The notes: generated by a model not told the origin, from the letters alone. Positions 1 through 5,608 are shown, counted from the first letter of the stretch. The stretch is DNA of 5,661 nucleotides from Candidatus Iainarchaeum sp. (GCA_028700905.1 JAQVRT010000044.1:1-5661); one strand, 5' to 3'. Numbers and translations: made by a program.

Positions 1-3000
1 ACATCTTAAAAGGTCCAACCTTTTCTAAAGCTTTATTCATGTTTTCAGATTTTTTAACAGCTTCAGGATTAGAAGTATCTGGAGATACACTAATTTCAAA
101 TGCATCTTCTTCACAACCAGTTTCTGGATTAGTTTCTTTTATAGGATCAACATCCATTCCTTTAATTTCAGATTGATGCATTACATAGGTTTGTTCAACC
201 CACATTATATAACTATTCTTTTCTCCATTATAGATTAATTGTCCTCTTTCAAATTGAACTGAAATATTTTTACCAAGAGTGACTTCTTTGTCTTCAATAG
301 GATATAATTTTGTAGTTCTGTTTCCTAGAACATTTATTCTTGCAGATTCTCCAGAAGCAATTCTTCTTGGAGTTCCTTCTGCTATTATTTCTGCTGAACT
401 ATTCATTCCTTTTGGTATAATATCATATTGACTATCTGGGTTTAAATTATTTGTTGTGATAACTTGTTTTACAGAACCTAAATATTCTGTTAAAGTATTA
501 CCACTCATTTCAAGACCAGTTTGTTCATAGTAATTTCTTTTTAAACAACTTAAAAATTCAGCATCATCTATCTTTAGATTACCATAAACATCTATATTAA
601 ACAAAGGAGTGTTAGTATCAGGTACAGGGATATATGAAAGACTATGAGGAATTACTTTTGCAGGAATTCCTAAGTTAGTTGCCATTAGTCTTACCCAATC
701 TTTATTTTTTGAAGAAATTATTTCTTTAACATTTCCATCTTTATCAACAATTTCAACAACACCTTCTTCTTTATCAACAACTAAAGTTTCTCCTGTTTTA
801 GAATCAACTAAATGTTCAACACCTTTGTTATTGTAACCACTTGCTCTACACATTGAACTTTCTCCAATTTCAAGGAAGAAAAGTTTAGCATTCATTGATC
901 CAGAAGTATTACCTTGTGTTTCTATTCTTGATTGCATTATTGGATTATCTTTAATTTCAGTTTCAGCAAATTGTTTTACTTCTTGTGTTGTTTTTGAAAT
1001 TGATTCTTGAAGTTCTGTGTTCTTTGTAATATTTGTTAAACTTTTTTCAACAGAATCTGCTCCTTTTGAAATTGCATCTCCAACTTTATTTTTTGGATCT
1101 TTTTCAATTCTTTCATATTCTTCAGAAGCAACAAAGAAATGTGAATAATAACCTTCTTCATGATCTACACAATTATAAATTTCTGGAACAATTACAACTT
1201 GTGGTAAGATATCACCAAAGATTGCTCCTAAAACTACTCTGTGTTGAGGAATACTTAATGAATAATAAACAATATTTGAAAAACCCGCTGCAACAGCACC
1301 TGCTCTATATGATTTTCCTGTTATTTGATTTGTCCAACCTATTGGTATACCCATAACTTCTAAATTTTTAAGTTTATCAGAACAAGTTTCTTCTTCATTA
1401 ATTGATTGTAAAAGATTTACTGAATCTGTAGAATTAAAACCTGCAAGAGAACCATCATAATCTGTATGATGAGAAAATGCAATTAATGTTTGTCCTTCTT
1501 CTTCAAAGTTTTCTTCACTTGTGTTTTCTAAAATATAACTAGTTGTTTTTATTGCATTTCCAGTTGCATAATTAACTTCAATATTTTTCTTAAGACTTGG
1601 AGTATAGGTGTTATTTGCATCCATAGATTTACTTCTTGTAACTTCTTCAAGAAGAGAAGAATCTCCAACTTTTATATGACAAGAAGTTGTTGAACAATTA
1701 TTGTTCATTGCATCAGTTAATATTGCAATATTATCTGTAGAACTTCTTCTTATGTGTCCTTCAGTAAGTTCTGTTATCCAGTTTGAAAAACCTTGTGTTG
1801 TTTCCCACTCTGTGTTTTCTAAAGCACCTTTAGGAAGATTTACCATCCAAAATATAATTGAATTAAAATAATCCATAAAAAGATCTCCTTGATCAGAACC
1901 ATCATTTGCAAAGAAATCTATATAAGAATCATTGTATATATCTCCACTTTCACCATGTTTGAAAATAATAGAAGTATATGTTTCTGGTATTCTAAACATA
2001 CTATATCTATCAAAAGCTCCACCAAATATAGTAGAACCAGCTGTTTTAAATTGCCAGTATCCAAAATTATAAAGATAAGCTTTTGCAGAATCTGACATTA
2101 TGTTAAATCCTCTTTTATCCCATTGAGTTACAGTTTGTTGTTTCATTCTTTGATTTATATAACTTAATCCTCTTCCTGTACTCCATCCTTGGTCTTTTAA
2201 AACATTTACGACACCATCAGTTACTATTTCTGCATCTTTTATTTTTTTAATTCCAAGTTCTTGTAAATAACCATAAGATACTTCTAAAGGATTAATTCCA
2301 TATTTTGAAAGTTCTGCATCAGGAACTGCAGTATCTTTAATATCTCTCATATTTATTTGTTTACCAGGATCAACATCTCCAATATCGATTACAGATCCTC
2401 TCACCTTTTTTGGAGTTCCATCTTTTGCAACATATTCTATTAATACATCTGGTTTTTTGTTGTATATTATATCATTATAATTAAGCATAGTTGAAGAATC
2501 ACTTATTTTTTCTTTAAAAGGAATAATTACTTCAACCTCACTTGGACCATCTTTAAAATTAACAGTTATTTTTTTAGTTTGGAAAGGAGAAATTTTATTT
2601 TCAGAAATAATATCTCCAAATTTAGAAGATCCTGTAAGTTCTGTTGAAGTTACTTCATTTTTAAGTCTTACTTTATTTAATAAAACTTCTTCATCATTAA
2701 TTATTTTTCCTCTTTCTTTTAAAAGAGTGATATTATCAGCACCATCATCCCATTTAAATTTATTTTCTGTAAATGTTGAAAATGATTTATTAAGACTATT
2801 TAATCTTTTTGTTTCTTCAAGTAAAAGATCATATTCTTCTTTTGTTAAAGATTGATAAAAATCTTCCATAGTTTTAGATTTATTAAATAAATTTTCAAGA
2901 GGTTCTTTTAAAGTCTTTTTTAAATTATCAGTTGTAAAATCTTGAACCATTCTAACTGTTCTAATATTGTTTTGATATTCAAGAACAGATTCCATGAACA

Positions 3001-4330
3001 CTCTTTGTTGAGGTTTATTCATTTTTGCAAAAGCTCCATCTTTAAAGAACTCATTTTTAATTGTGTCTGCATTCTTTTTAGAATTTAAAGCATTTACATA
3101 TTTATCAAACTCTGGTTTCATGTTATATCTATTAATATTCTTGATTATATCGTCATTACTTTTTGCAAGTTTAGCAGCATAATCATCAATGTTTTTTGTA
3201 ATCTTTGAATATTTATAAGTTTGTACTGCAGAACTTACTGCACTCATATCTTTATTTAAAAAATTATCTAAAAAACCATTTTTACCTCTAACTCCACCAA
3301 TCTTATCAGATGCAATTAATTTTTGAGCTCCAAGTTTATTTGGTACATTTCTAAATATTTTTCCAGTAAATTTCCAAAGAACAGGAGATGCTGAAGTAAA
3401 TATCATATCAGCAGAATAATATTGATTAAAAACTTTGTCAAAAAGAGAATACATGTTAATATAACAATTATCAGAATTACATGTGCTTTCCATACTTGCA
3501 TTAAAAGAATCAGTAAACATACTGTTTTCAATAGCTTTATCTAAAACTAATTCCATTTTTTTAATTTCAATTTCAGTTAGATTAGTATCTTGAAATTGAC
3601 TTTTTCTAAACTCTGCAAGTTCTTCATAAGACATATCAGAAAATAAACCTAAATCAACATTTGTGTCATAATCTAACTCTGGGTCAACTAATTCATTTGA
3701 AACTTCTTCTAATTTTTTAAGACCTAACATATCTAAAAAATCTTTACTTACAGAAAAAGTTTGATCAACAAAACCATAACTTCCATTTTGTCTAAATAAT
3801 CCTTCTCCTTCAAGATAACAAGCTGCTTGGTCTCCACCAGCACATCTTCCAACTCTTAGGGTACTATCAAGATCAAGTCCACTTGAAAAAGGACCATAAC
3901 ATACTTGACCTAAAACTGTTGGAACTTCTAAAGGATCCATTATTTTGTTAGGGATTTCTGTTTTTCCTACAACATCTCCTGATTTTGTATCTTTATCTGT
4001 AATAATTACTTCATTTGCTTTTAATGTTTCTCTATTTTGGTTTGCAGGTTGATCACTTGTTATTAAATCAGCTTTAAAACCATTAACTAAAATCTCATTC
4101 CAAATATTTTCTACAGCTTCAGGAGAAAGCTCTTCTGTGTAACATTCTGAAATAACTTTATCTTGAGTATAGTTTATAGGTTCATCTGTATAATTAATTG
4201 GAATAGCATCATCAAAATAATAAGATGTATCTTCAGTTGAAAATACTCTGTTTGGATCTATTGTAGATGCAAAAACTCCATTTATCATTAATATTAAAAA
4301 AAATATTGCCCAAAGTCTTTTTGTTTTCAT
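1..4330 (-). CDS. Giant secreted or surface protein of unknown family. The N-terminal 1,443 codons are visible; the C-terminus lies beyond the left window edge.
   Basis: Manual reverse-complement translation of every 60-nt line from 4330 down to 2 found ATG at 4330-4328 and 1,443 consecutive sense codons with no TAA, TAG or TGA. The translation ends ...SPDTSNPEAVKKSENMNKALEKVGPFKM with one base left over at position 1. An in-frame TAA at 4355-4357 with no intervening ATG makes 4330 the first possible ATG. An N-terminal signal peptide follows immediately. The other frames of this AT-rich DNA are chopped by stops, and the longest antisense ORF in the track is only 107 aa, so an open frame of this length is not chance. 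The amino-acid composition looks protein-like throughout. Confidence 0.93.
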   Translation of the reverse strand, partial: MKTKRLWAIFFLILMINGVFASTIDPNRVFSTEDTSYYFDDAIPINYTDEPINYTQDKVISECYTEELSPEAVENIWNEILVNGFKADLITSDQPANQNRETLKANEVIITDKDTKSGDVVGKTEIPNKIMDPLEVPTVLGQVCYGPFSSGLDLDSTLRVGRCAGGDQAACYLEGEGLFRQNGSYGFVDQTFSVSKDFLDMLGLKKLEEVSNELVDPELDYDTNVDLGLFSDMSYEELAEFRKSQFQDTNLTEIEIKKMELVLDKAIENSMFTDSFNASMESTCNSDNCYINMYSLFDKVFNQYYSADMIFTSASPVLWKFTGKIFRNVPNKLGAQKLIASDKIGGVRGKNGFLDNFLNKDMSAVSSAVQTYKYSKITKNIDDYAAKLAKSNDDIIKNINRYNMKPEFDKYVNALNSKKNADTIKNEFFKDGAFAKMNKPQQRVFMESVLEYQNNIRTVRMVQDFTTDNLKKTLKEPLENLFNKSKTMEDFYQSLTKEEYDLLLEETKRLNSLNKSFSTFTENKFKWDDGADNITLLKERGKIINDEEVLLNKVRLKNEVTSTELTGSSKFGDIISENKISPFQTKKITVNFKDGPSEVEVIIPFKEKISDSSTMLNYNDIIYNKKPDVLIEYVAKDGTPKKVRGSVIDIGDVDPGKQINMRDIKDTAVPDAELSKYGINPLEVSYGYLQELGIKKIKDAEIVTDGVVNVLKDQGWSTGRGLSYINQRMKQQTVTQWDKRGFNIMSDSAKAYLYNFGYWQFKTAGSTIFGGAFDRYSMFRIPETYTSIIFKHGESGDIYNDSYIDFFANDGSDQGDLFMDYFNSIIFWMVNLPKGALENTEWETTQGFSNWITELTEGHIRRSSTDNIAILTDAMNNNCSTTSCHIKVGDSSLLEEVTRSKSMDANNTYTPSLKKNIEVNYATGNAIKTTSYILENTSEENFEEEGQTLIAFSHHTDYDGSLAGFNSTDSVNLLQSINEEETCSDKLKNLEVMGIPIGWTNQITGKSYRAGAVAAGFSNIVYYSLSIPQHRVVLGAIFGDILPQVVIVPEIYNCVDHEEGYYSHFFVASEEYERIEKDPKNKVGDAISKGADSVEKSLTNITKNTELQESISKTTQEVKQFAETEIKDNPIMQSRIETQGNTSGSMNAKLFFLEIGESSMCRASGYNNKGVEHLVDSKTGETLVVDKEEGVVEIVDKDGNVKEIISSKNKDWVRLMATNLGIPAKVIPHSLSYIPVPDTNTPLFNIDVYGNLKIDDAEFLSCLKRNYYEQTGLEMSGNTLTEYLGSVKQVITTNNLNPDSQYDIIPKGMNSSAEIIAEGTPRRIASGESARINVLGNRTTKLYPIEDKEVTLGKNISVQFERGQLIYNGEKNSYIMWVEQTYVMHQSEIKGMDVDPIKETNPETGCEEDAFEISVSPDTSNPEAVKKSENMNKALEKVGPFKM
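738..780 (-). repeat. In-frame 13-nt direct repeat with a 30-nt period inside the giant ORF
   Basis: The + strand sequence tctttatcaacaa occurs at 738-750 and again at 768-780. On the coding strand this gives V-V-D-K-E and I-V-D-K-D within ...LVVDKEEGVVEIVDKDGNVKEI... Confidence 0.6.
4268..4330 (-). other. Sec-type (signal peptidase I) signal peptide of the giant ORF, with predicted cleavage VFA|ST after residue 21
   Basis: The translated N-terminus is MKTKRLWAIFFLILMINGVFA-ST. It has a basic n-region (KTKR), an uncharged hydrophobic h-region of about 13 residues, and small residues at -3/-1 (V-F-A). There is no lipobox Cys and no twin-arginine motif. Confidence 0.75.
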
Positions 4331-4343
4331 AATTTTTCTTTCT

Positions 4344-4844
4344 TTATATATATATTAAATAAATTAATAATGCTATTAATTTTGGAAAGACTAATAATAT
4401 AAAAAATATAATTATATTTGTAATTATTAGACTTTTAAATAAATTAAGATTATGATAAGGTTTCTTTTTATTTGTTTCAAACTTATCATAAATTGCAAGA
4501 GTTATAAATGAAAAAGAAAGAATAACTCCTGAAATTATAATGTTAATTAAAATTAATCTTATTAAATGATAGAAAATAAAACCAACTGATTGCCAAAATG
4601 TTAAATCTTGATAAAAAGTTGAAATAATTGGTAAAAAATAAATTAATAATAAAATAATATATGAAATTATATAAACAATTATAAAAAGAGAACCAATAAC
4701 ACTAAATTTTTTTCTTAAATTAATAAATTTAGATTTGAATATTTTTACAATTATAAAGAAAGGAATTGAAAAAAGTATTGAAACACCAACTAACTTTAAA
4801 ATAAATAATAAATAATTTAAGATTGTTTGAAATATGTTTTCCAT
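4344..4844 (-). CDS. Small polytopic integral membrane protein, 166 aa, 4-5 predicted transmembrane segments, unknown family
   Basis: This ORF is in the supplied track: ATG at 4844-4842 and TAA at 4346-4344. It has long I/L/F/V-rich segments (about residues 18-35, 48-77, 87-119 and 138-166). These are separated by K/R-rich loops (KSKFINLRKKF and DKFETNKKKPYHNLNLFK), consistent with the positive-inside rule. 166 stop-free codons in DNA this AT-rich are very unlikely by chance. A GGGGAT Shine-Dalgarno-like element lies 6 nt upstream of the ATG. Confidence 0.8.
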   Translation of the reverse strand: MENIFQTILNYLLFILKLVGVSILFSIPFFIIVKIFKSKFINLRKKFSVIGSLFIIVYIISYIILLLIYFLPIISTFYQDLTFWQSVGFIFYHLIRLILINIIISGVILSFSFITLAIYDKFETNKKKPYHNLNLFKSLIITNIIIFFILLVFPKLIALLIYLIYI

Positions 4845-4850
4845 TAATTT

Positions 4851-4856
4851 ATCCCC
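4851..4856 (-). promoter_or_regulatory. Shine-Dalgarno-like GGGGAT upstream of the membrane-protein gene
   Basis: The minus strand reads TTTTTGGGGATAAATTAATG. It is the only G-run in the intergenic region, sits 6 nt before the ATG, and matches 5 of 6 positions of the GGTGAT part of the canonical AGGAGGTGATC anti-16S complement. Confidence 0.4.
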
Positions 4857-4876
4857 AAAAATATAATATATCTATA

Positions 4877-4889
4877 ATATATATTAATT
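4877..4889. repeat. Copy 1 of the 13-nt direct repeat ATATATATTAATT in the divergent promoter region
   Basis: It is identical to 4911-4923. It lies 33-45 nt upstream of the minus-strand ATG at 4844. Confidence 0.5.
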
Positions 4890-4910
4890 GAAAGATTTAA
4901 AAGGCTTATT

Positions 4911-4923
4911 ATATATATTAATT
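4911..4923. repeat. Copy 2 of the 13-nt direct repeat ATATATATTAATT in the divergent promoter region
   Basis: It is identical to 4877-4889. It lies 38-50 nt upstream of the plus-strand ATG at 4961 and abuts the TTTATATA element. Confidence 0.5.
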
Positions 4924-4933
4924 TATATAAAAA
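4922..4933 (+). promoter_or_regulatory. TATA-box-like element TTTATATAAAAA upstream of the 215-aa gene
   Basis: It matches the archaeal TATA consensus TTTAWATA and starts 39 nt upstream of the ATG at 4961, which would give a leader of about 10 nt. A bacterial reading also fits: TTGAAA at 4888-4893, an 18-nt spacer, then TATATA at 4912-4917. In DNA this AT-rich neither reading is decisive. Confidence 0.35.
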
Positions 4934-4960
4934 GTAAGAAAATTAAAGAGAAAATTAAAT

Positions 4961-5608
4961 ATGGAAATTGAAAAAGTACCTAGAAGAGAAAGAAGACATT
5001 TTAGAAAATATATAAATGGAGAAATTGTTTATTCTGATGTACCTTTTGGACATGAAGAAAAACATAATTATTCTTCTAAAACTTATCAAGATAACAGTGA
5101 AGAAGATGATATTAAAAGTCTTTTAGATGTGGGTCAAAAGAAAAAATTAATTGTACATAAAGATGAAAAGATTCAAAAAGTTTTAAGAAACATTTCAGAT
5201 ATTGTTTCTCCTGATATTGATAGTATTGCTGATGCTATTTATTCTCAAGTAAGTAAAGACGATAATTTAAATAGTTTTAAAAAAGAAGAAATTGAAAAAA
5301 CTATTAAAAGTAGTAAACATTATAGAGCCTCTAAAGATGATTCTGGAGAAATAGTTGAAACAGACAATATGAAATCTTTAGTTGAAGATGTCTTTAATCA
5401 ACTTGAATCTGAAGAAATAAGAAATGAAAATAAATCGAATGTAAAAAAAGAAACTTCTAAAAAGAAAGAAGAACCTTCTAAAAAAATTATAAAAGAAGAA
5501 AAGAAAAATAAAAAAGAAGAATCTGACATACAAGATTTATTGGACGATGATTCTGATTCTTTAGATCTTGAAGAAGATAATGAAGATGATTTAGGTTTAA
5601 AGTTTTAA
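4961..5608 (+). CDS. Highly charged, low-complexity hypothetical protein of 215 aa, with a basic N-terminus, a K/E-rich middle and an acidic C-terminal tail; no Cys and no TM segment
   Basis: This ORF is in the supplied track: ATG at 4961 and TAA at 5606-5608. It is open for 215 codons in AT-rich DNA. The N-terminus is MEIEKVPRRERRHFRKY. The C-terminus is ESDIQDLLDDDSDSLDLEEDNEDDLGLKF (nt 5519-5605). A TATA-like element lies 39 nt upstream of the ATG. I recognise no domain. Confidence 0.75.
   Translation: MEIEKVPRRERRHFRKYINGEIVYSDVPFGHEEKHNYSSKTYQDNSEEDDIKSLLDVGQKKKLIVHKDEKIQKVLRNISDIVSPDIDSIADAIYSQVSKDDNLNSFKKEEIEKTIKSSKHYRASKDDSGEIVETDNMKSLVEDVFNQLESEEIRNENKSNVKKETSKKKEEPSKKIIKEEKKNKKEESDIQDLLDDDSDSLDLEEDNEDDLGLKF

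Follow-up and report, generated by a model that had tools for sequence, protein, structure and literature searches.

A giant, C-terminally anchored candidate surface protein encoded at a type IV pilus-like locus of Iainarchaeota

Introduction

What is the product of a single giant gene that runs off the end of an archaeal contig, and with which cellular machinery does it work? The question is raised by a contig of 5,661 nucleotides (nt) from Candidatus Iainarchaeum sp. (GCA_028700905.1 JAQVRT010000044.1:1-5661), referred to here at its full length as the window. A first reading made from the DNA alone (the sequence-only reading) had described a very long open reading frame (ORF) on its minus strand, encoding an exported protein of no recognisable family. 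Using translation, genome comparison, profile searches and structure models, we examined the gene, its product, its relatives and its neighbours. We lean, with modest confidence, towards a C-terminally anchored envelope or adhesion protein that would work together with a type IV pilus-like machine.

Results

The giant ORF is a real gene under purifying selection

Independent translation of the minus strand from position 4330 to position 2 yielded 1,443 sense codons and zero stops, as the sequence-only reading had reported from a hand translation. Based on the base composition of the ORF itself (28% G+C), the stop probability is 0.093 per codon, or about one stop in every 11 codons, and the probability of finding no stop across 1,443 codons is about 1e-61. 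The longest stop-free run in any other frame of the window is at most 225 codons. An in-frame TAA lies 27 nt 5′ of the ATG at 4330, which is therefore the sole available start. The frame is still open at base 2, and the prediction that the real protein is larger was borne out by a full-length copy in public data of 1,629 amino acids (aa) that is 99% identical (P0001). Both this copy and the one in the genome record CP045477.1 are labelled "hypothetical protein"; the gene is real, and there is no annotation gap in public data. The frame had also been described as missing from the supplied ORF track. That track does show exactly two antisense ORFs inside 1..4330 (1033-1356 and 1889-2095, at the default cut-off of 60 aa), but the absence of the giant ORF is an artefact and not biology, because the listing omits ORFs that run off either end of the source.

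2..4330, minus strand: giant ORF, which encodes residues 1-1443 out of 1,629; the 186 C-terminal residues, with the anchor, lie past window position 1

The window represents a variant strain of Candidatus Forterrea multitransposorum (CP045477.1; Iainarchaeota/Diapherotrites, DPANN), where the giant gene occupies positions 10001-14890 of locus L003. The AT-rich, small-genome prokaryote surmised from the sequence is thus a DPANN archaeon, with a reference record of 839,632 bp. The two versions of the gene differ at 96 of 4,329 nt, changing 24 of 1,443 residues, and the ratio of nonsynonymous to synonymous substitution rates (dN/dS) is 0.09 overall. This ratio follows a gradient along the protein, from 0.20 at residues 1-360 to 0.03 at residues 1151-1443. 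The giant protein is therefore a constrained core component and not a host-range determinant undergoing rapid diversification. Constraint is greatest in its membrane-proximal module, in agreement with the finding described below that this part alone is conserved into Micrarchaeota. Strong purifying selection, together with single-copy conservation across the phylum, is more easily reconciled with a core component of the envelope than with a host-range adhesin that evolves fast.

The strains differ at neighbouring amino acids in one cluster only, at residues 908-911 (positions 1598-1609, minus strand), which read TYTP in the window and STST in the reference. It lies in the family's principal hot spot of insertions and deletions at residues 900-920, where the alignment has 91 insert columns.

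A predicted type I membrane protein with a tripartite C-terminus

Averaged over the family, hydropathy reveals only two strongly hydrophobic segments, the signal peptide at residues 5-18 and the C-terminal helix at 1600-1615, which are kept in 97-98% of members. The protein is therefore best read, from its hydropathy, as a type I membrane protein whose ectodomain comprises about 1,577 residues, with a mass of about 177 kDa and an isoelectric point (pI) of 4.7. We rejected a polytopic membrane protein, as transmembrane-level hydropathy is reached by the two terminal segments only. The parts of the protein that fall within the window are listed here, with the predicted local distance difference test (pLDDT) score of the AlphaFold2 models where it characterises them.

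4268..4330, minus strand: predicted Sec-type signal peptide MKTKRLWAIFFLILMINGVFA; the predicted cleavage site precedes S22
3251..4267, minus strand: N-terminal Cys-containing region, residues 22-360, fastest-evolving and poorly modelled (pLDDT mostly <60)
2192..3241, minus strand: helical bundle 364-535, beta domain 540-670 and long helix 681-713, AlphaFold2 pLDDT about 90
1121..2113, minus strand: most sequence-conserved core, residues 740-1070, with invariant columns and the motifs DFFANDGSDQGDLF, FSHHTDYDG and CVDxEEGYYxH
1169..1312, minus strand: conserved semi-hydrophobic segment, residues 1007-1054, below the strength of a transmembrane helix
2..956, minus strand: start of the C-terminal beta-rich module, residues 1125-1443, which runs to about residue 1570 outside the window and is shared with Micrarchaeota

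At the N-terminus, the predicted Sec-type signal peptide agrees with the sequence-only reading, and its hydropathy peak at residues 5-18 is kept in 97% of family members. A motif scan of the window protein found neither a class III ([KR]GQ) motif nor a lipobox at the N-terminus, which also does not have the form of a type IV pilin or archaellin class III signal peptide ([KR][GA] + Q/A/S + hydrophobic helix). Other features described earlier were recovered as well: the protein is rich in E, K, N, S, T and D, and its window part has 13 Cys with close pairs at 163/171, 284/289 and 879/884, lacks HExxH, lipobox and LPxTG motifs and has no tandem repeats (the best hhalign probability among 12 segments is 5.7%). 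Within the conserved core, GSDQGDLF is encoded at positions 1877-1900. The semi-hydrophobic segment at residues 1007-1054 peaks at 1.7 in a Kyte-Doolittle window of 19 residues, with a family mean of 1.4.

The full 1,629-aa protein contains 14 Cys, the 13 in the window part among them. Counting a column as conserved when Cys is present in at least 86% of 58 sequences, we observe 12 conserved Cys columns, of which five lie in the N-terminal region (63, 163, 171, 284 and 289) and the others at 879, 884, 983, 1054, 1262, 1406 and 1461. This pattern of conservation fits an oxidising, extracellular location. N-glycosylation sequons number 19 against 17.5 +/- 3.7 expected; a glycoprotein signature was rejected, as sequons are not enriched.

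The sequence-only reading had found no sorting motif, which holds inside the window but not for the true C-terminus 186 aa beyond it, where full-length homologues carry a transmembrane anchor and a family-wide tripartite anchor signal. In P0001 these 186 residues include a linker rich in Gly and Ser, LNLPLTPE as the motif, about 20 hydrophobic residues as the helix and KFKKR as the basic tail. About 76 of 83 members carry all three elements (motif, helix and tail), and the Iainarchaeota consensus before the helix is [FL]N[LI]P[SL]xPE. In the Micrarchaeota relatives the motif recurs as LPSWPxD/E and the tripartite C-terminus is retained. The 186 residues matched none of the NCBIfam C-terminal sorting-signal (CTERM) models, and PGF and PEP motifs were not found in the sequence.

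The family spans Iainarchaeota and is shared in part with Micrarchaeota

Word-indexed searches returned 60 full-length homologues, every one named only "hypothetical protein", and in two family searches against precomputed Pfam annotation none of the 60 has a Pfam domain on record. A pattern scan combined with tblastn, using one genome per GTDB species, placed the gene in at least 55 species at 24% to 99% full-length identity, and the carrier genomes are essentially all labelled Iainarchaeum, Diapherotrites or "archaeon". An exhaustive HMMER search with a profile of residues 520-1600 against 1.84 billion cluster representatives gave 215 proteins at E <= 1e-3, of which 114 are at E <= 1e-30. 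The protein is thus not the orphan that it had been taken for, and all of its relatives are uncharacterised.

The weaker tail of the HMMER list consists of proteins of 1,200-1,440 aa whose named sources are metagenome-assembled genomes labelled Micrarchaeota, Micrarchaeia or Norongarragalinales. Comparing the Forterrea-type profile (A1) with the Micrarchaeota-type profile (A7) using hhalign, we found a match over residues 1125-1625 with a probability of 99.9 and E = 1e-36. The C-terminal ~500 residues, including the anchor, are common to the Forterrea-type family and the Micrarchaeota relatives, and the same profile-profile comparison detected no relation between their N-terminal ~1,100 residues. 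A word-indexed search using one Micrarchaeota relative (P0169) as query returned nothing besides P0169 itself. A viral or mobile origin was rejected, with no relative among IMG/VR viral contigs. We found no published work that names the family, and the proteins of >1,800 aa mentioned in the Forterrea genome paper are five only, all other than the giant protein.

Micrarchaeota contigs that carry stand-alone homologues encode further giant proteins nearby (L060 20479-24299; L061 15486-19565). One of these exceeds 2,900 aa and has faint Big_1, SpaA and MG-domain matches; another is a 1,359-aa Beta_helix/NosD protein.

Structure models and domain searches find no characterised relative

AlphaFold2 was run on alignments of 58 sequences as two models, one N-terminal and one C-terminal. 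The models are confident (pLDDT about 90) at residues 364-535, 540-670 and 681-713 and in a large beta-rich region at 1154-1565, where pLDDT is above 90. Confidence is low in the N-terminal 360 residues and in the core at 740-1150, where pLDDT is 40-65 within residues 740-1070. A Foldseek search of the PDB with the N-terminal model gave a best E of 0.16. The C-terminal model (residues 1154-1570), searched against the PDB and BFVD, returned weak propeller-like and phage-tail-like matches at E ~1e-4. We did not take these matches as a fold assignment, as the template-modelling score is at most 0.15, the root-mean-square deviation is about 20 A or more and hhalign finds no repeats of the kind that the blades of a closed beta-propeller (Kelch, WD40, YWTD) would form.

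Sequence searches were equally empty. Residues 1-1443 have no match in Pfam plus NCBIfam at E <= 1, the C-terminal 186 aa have none in Pfam or NCBIfam including the archaeal S-layer models, and a PDB sequence search with the single protein and searches of Pfam, NCBIfam and the PDB with the A1 and A7 family profiles found nothing. Among domains sought by name, the archaeal S-layer models PF05123 (S_layer_N), TIGR01564 and TIGR01567 do not match the giant protein, and DUF2341, Secretin and SPEARE domains (serine protease plus restriction endonuclease) are absent from it, as is any Pfam match of any kind. On these searches and models, the family and its predicted fold have no convincing match to anything characterised.

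The giant gene is linked to a type IV pilus-like locus

Upstream of the giant gene, the reference genome encodes a 746-aa polytopic protein followed by seven small pilin-like proteins. The N-termini of the small proteins resemble class III (prepilin) signal peptides (for example MFIKNNKGQAFEAYQLLIAFIIATAILG, MKLISLKNSKGQAFSTFQLLIAAVVALA and NKAQMSAPFELLVAIIVM); sequences such as KGQAFSTFQLLIAAVVALA are directly visible, and the upstream small proteins have KGQ-type motifs. These proteins have no family matches in Pfam, NCBIfam or the PDB, and we call them pilin-like by their N-terminal motifs and context. The 746-aa protein appears to be the platform of the system, divergent in sequence, with Pfam T2SSF found in 8 of 12 homologues (best E = 3e-6), and a T2SSE ATPase (E = 3e-18) is encoded directly upstream of the platform gene in distant Iainarchaeota loci (L020, L042). 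The T2SSF-like platform, the T2SSE ATPase and the pilin-like genes therefore identify a type IV pilus-like (type IV filament) locus. At least two pilin-like families are encoded on the same strand within 9 kb upstream of the giant gene in all 38 Iainarchaeota loci for which at least 4 kb of upstream sequence is available.

The whole arrangement recurs around the Micrarchaeota-type relative P0169, where the order is ATPase, platform gene, six pilin-like genes, a divergent Zn-ribbon protein and membrane protein, a small membrane protein and the giant gene. The T2SSE ATPase of this locus (L058 1-1943) is interrupted by an intein (Pfam Intein_splicing plus LAGLIDADG_3).

Upstream of the platform gene, Forterrea-clade loci (L001-L003) have an opposite-strand ferredoxin and AP endonuclease where the distant loci L020, L031, L042 and L043 have the T2SSE ATPase. 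The ATPase of the Forterrea pilus-like system must be encoded elsewhere in the genome or be shared.

In distant Iainarchaeota loci, a second type IV filament module lies on the opposite strand a few kb downstream (L023 17342-20461, minus strand, with equivalents in L020, L024, L026 and L043). It comprises genes for a T2SSE ATPase (E = 1e-38) and for a pair of T2SSF-like proteins (~270-300 aa), beside a PAC2-family gene.

Other genes adjoining the giant ORF

The remainder of the window contains two further genes and the spacer between them.

4344..4844, minus strand: 166-aa membrane protein with four hydrophobic segments, ending 13 nt before the giant ORF
4845..4960, no strand: very AT-rich divergent intergenic spacer of 116 bp, the presumed promoter region of both flanking units
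4961..5608, plus strand: 215-aa K/E/D-rich protein with an N-terminal VPRRERRHF motif, a divergent and conserved neighbour

The 166-aa membrane-protein gene and the giant ORF probably form one transcription unit, and a small membrane protein of the same size directly precedes the giant gene in 37 loci across the phylum. The 166-aa protein may be a membrane partner or chaperone. Across loci it has no invariant Cys, His or Ser, and a role as a dedicated sortase or protease is unlikely, given that invariant catalytic residues are lacking. The 215-aa protein has BLAST homologues in 15 loci; in distant Iainarchaeota and at the Micrarchaeota-type locus, the proteins encoded at the same position open with PRRMRRF and have a Zn-ribbon at their C-terminal end. 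It may be a regulator in the cytoplasm or an accessory factor of the locus.

G+C content falls to 16% in 4250-5000, across the membrane-protein gene and the spacer, against 28-30% in the giant ORF. A scan of the window with a sigma-70 (bacterial-type) promoter model is not informative for an archaeon, and Rfam and tRNA scans of the window were empty. Downstream genes such as that for aspartyl-tRNA synthetase are kept only among close relatives; a CPBP-family protease 7.5 kb downstream was rejected as a partner, being syntenic only in close relatives.

Discussion

A probable surface protein that may work with a pilus-like machine

We find it somewhat more credible than otherwise that the giant protein is anchored at its C-terminus, serves in the envelope or in adhesion and does so in concert with the pilus-like machine. 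The sequence-only reading had suggested a surface, adhesion or host-interaction role. Surface location is indeed the best reading of the Sec-type N-terminus, the C-terminal transmembrane helix and the 12 conserved Cys, whereas for adhesion or contact with a host we can only infer. The linkage to the pilus-like locus makes a role in a surface apparatus more specific, without proving it.

We propose that the protein would be exported through the Sec route, as its N-terminal motif indicates, and would then lose its 21-residue signal peptide. The acidic ectodomain of ~177 kDa would fold outside the membrane, where disulfides between the conserved Cys may stabilise it. The single C-terminal helix and K/R tail that follow [FL]N[LI]P[SL]xPE in full-length homologues would hold the protein in the cytoplasmic membrane. 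The beta-rich C-terminal ~450 aa would then lie beside the membrane and the faster-evolving N-terminal ~1,100 aa would project outward, an orientation suggested by the topology and the dN/dS gradient. In the cell, the protein would act alongside the pilus-like machine and the small membrane protein encoded just upstream, to both of which its gene is linked, as a fixed component serving the envelope or adhesion.

Several observations weigh against this proposal. Neither sequence nor Foldseek searches found similarity to any known adhesin, S-layer or pilus-associated domain, and the topology assignment is based on hydropathy and motifs. A divergently transcribed gene separates the giant gene from the pilin operon. 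In addition, two of the three Micrarchaeota-type relatives that we examined have housekeeping neighbours and no pilus locus nearby, so that the pilus link is specific to certain lineages and may be an indirect one. The linkage is invariant in Iainarchaeota and is not obligatory for the wider superfamily.

Comparison with known systems

Proteins of this general description have been noted before. Makarova, Koonin & Albers 2016 described large, Cys-rich "S-layer-like" proteins or adhesins with a C-terminal transmembrane helix as extra components of several archaeal type IV pilus loci (PMC4858521), and also noted DPANN pilus loci that consist largely of unrecognisable "dark matter" genes (PMC6393860). 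Like the described class, the giant protein has a signal peptide, a single C-terminal transmembrane helix, multiple conserved Cys and a large size, and its gene neighbours those for a secretion ATPase, for a platform of the TadC/FlaJ type and for groups of pilins that evolve fast. The ATPase that is adjacent in that class is found next to the platform gene in L020 and L042 and is not adjacent in the Forterrea clade. That class, however, is a descriptive one, defined by context and with a predicted function, and is not a homologous family; the giant protein is longer (1,629 aa), has a divergent gene between it and the pilin operon and matched no arCOG, Pfam or NCBIfam model searched. On the best-supported reading it is a kind of component predicted before for archaeal pilus loci, in a family that itself matches no model searched.

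Another point of comparison is offered by the PilY1-like tip adhesins with DUF2341 of Methanococcus-type pilus loci, for which an adhesion role was proposed (PMC4858521). The giant protein is likewise a large extracellular protein encoded at a type IV pilus locus, but it lacks DUF2341, and PilY1-type proteins are not C-terminally membrane-anchored. An experimentally supported surface protein from a sister DPANN phylum is SLP_Mh (Micr_00292) of the cultured micrarchaeon A_DKE, its most abundant and immunodetected S-layer protein, of 101 kDa (Gfrerer et al., bioRxiv 10.1101/2021.04.28.441871). Both are large, acidic, exported surface proteins; SLP_Mh carries PF05123/TIGR01564-type domains and no C-terminal transmembrane anchor, and the giant protein is the reverse.

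At its C-terminus the giant protein resembles substrates of archaeosortases and exosortases, which have a tripartite C-terminus made of a short Pro-containing motif, a hydrophobic helix and a basic tail. Haft and co-workers are said to have described such substrates in 2012 as the PGF-CTERM, PEF-CTERM, VPXXXP-CTERM and PEP-CTERM groups. The giant protein has an equivalent motif, helix and basic tail after its Gly/Ser-rich linker, but [FL]N[LI]P[SL]xPE (LPSWPxD/E in the Micrarchaeota relatives) fits no NCBIfam CTERM model, and no gene for a cognate sortase was recognised in the 25 kb of CP045477.1 that the analysis covered. A further likeness is to SlaB of Sulfolobales and tetrabrachion of Staphylothermus marinus, large envelope proteins in which a C-terminal helix provides the membrane attachment and the distal parts form or carry the outer layer. 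The giant protein is also a large archaeal envelope protein with a C-terminal membrane helix. It has no sequence or fold similarity to them and no long coiled-coil stalk is predicted in it, its only helical region being the compact bundle at residues 364-535.

Alternative explanations

This last comparison leads to an alternative that we consider unlikely, in which the giant protein is a membrane-anchored stalk that ties a separate S-layer lattice to the membrane, as an analogue of SlaB, and has no connection to the pilus genes. The anchor and the membrane-proximal module are conserved across Iainarchaeota and Micrarchaeota, and the stand-alone homologues in housekeeping contexts are in keeping with such a role. 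SLP_Mh is without an anchor, and its authors proposed a second, transmembrane-anchored partner (bioRxiv 10.1101/2021.04.28.441871); in electron cryotomography of ARM-1, densities with several domains extend between the S-layer and the membrane (PMC11329633). However, the protein is not homologous to SlaB, its models contain no long coiled-coil stalk, and at 177 kDa it far exceeds the size of known anchors. A stalk of this type would also leave the pilus-locus linkage in 38 of 38 Iainarchaeota loci unexplained.

The giant protein could instead be the main S-layer lattice protein of Iainarchaeota, self-assembling into a two-dimensional array with its own C-terminal helix as the anchor. The signal peptide, acidic pI of 4.7-5.2, C-terminal anchor and large size are all as such a protein would have, as are its single-copy, phylum-wide presence and strong purifying selection. 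We regard this as distinctly improbable. PF05123, TIGR01564 and TIGR01567 go unmatched by the window protein and no Pfam domain is recorded in the 60 full-length homologues; sequons are present at the expected number (19 vs 17.5 +/- 3.7); and 14 Cys are atypical for an S-layer protein. Moreover, Micrarchaeota have a separate PF05123 S-layer protein, SLP_Mh, in addition to relatives of the C-terminal module of the giant protein.

Another arrangement, to which we give little weight, would make the giant protein a previously unrecognised part of a DPANN type IV filament machine. It would span the envelope from membrane to S-layer as an oligomer, forming a collar, dock or conduit that is secretin-like in function, and its [FL]N[LI]P[SL]xPE ending might be a new signal for sorting. 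Cryotomograms of the micrarchaeon ARM-1 contain barrel-shaped and crescent-shaped envelope densities (PMC11329633), and if the protein were such a collar, it could correspond to these unassigned densities.

Very improbable, in our judgement, is a surface-anchored enzyme such as a hydrolase, with the conserved core as a putative site of metal binding or of catalysis on polymers from a host or the environment. Asp, His and Glu that are invariant or nearly so do cluster at residues 800-1070 (DFFANDGSDQGDLF, FSHHTDYDG, CVDxEEGYYxH), the most conserved stretch of the protein. Against this, no enzyme family is matched in Pfam, NCBIfam or the PDB, HExxH is absent, and the core is modelled at low confidence.

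Finally, a spurious ORF, pseudogene remnant or assembly artefact is refuted by the ~1e-61 chance of so long an open frame, by full-length homologues in at least 55 species and by a dN/dS of 0.09, with nothing in its favour beyond absence from the ORF track, itself the effect of a listing rule.

Implications for DPANN surfaces

DPANN archaea are thought to live by cell contact, and almost none of their surface proteins have been identified. The giant protein is the largest conserved extracellular protein of a locus that is intact across a whole phylum. Its membrane-proximal module is common to Micrarchaeota, a phylum with cultured members, and its confidently predicted domains have no known fold relatives. 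Should the protein prove to be an ordinary anchored surface protein, its recognition would improve the annotation of >200 clusters of "hypothetical protein". If it is true that the motif before the transmembrane helix is a processing site, it would be a new archaeal sorting signal. The family provides concrete targets for learning how DPANN archaea construct their envelope, how a pilus-like filament crosses it or how the cells attach to partners.

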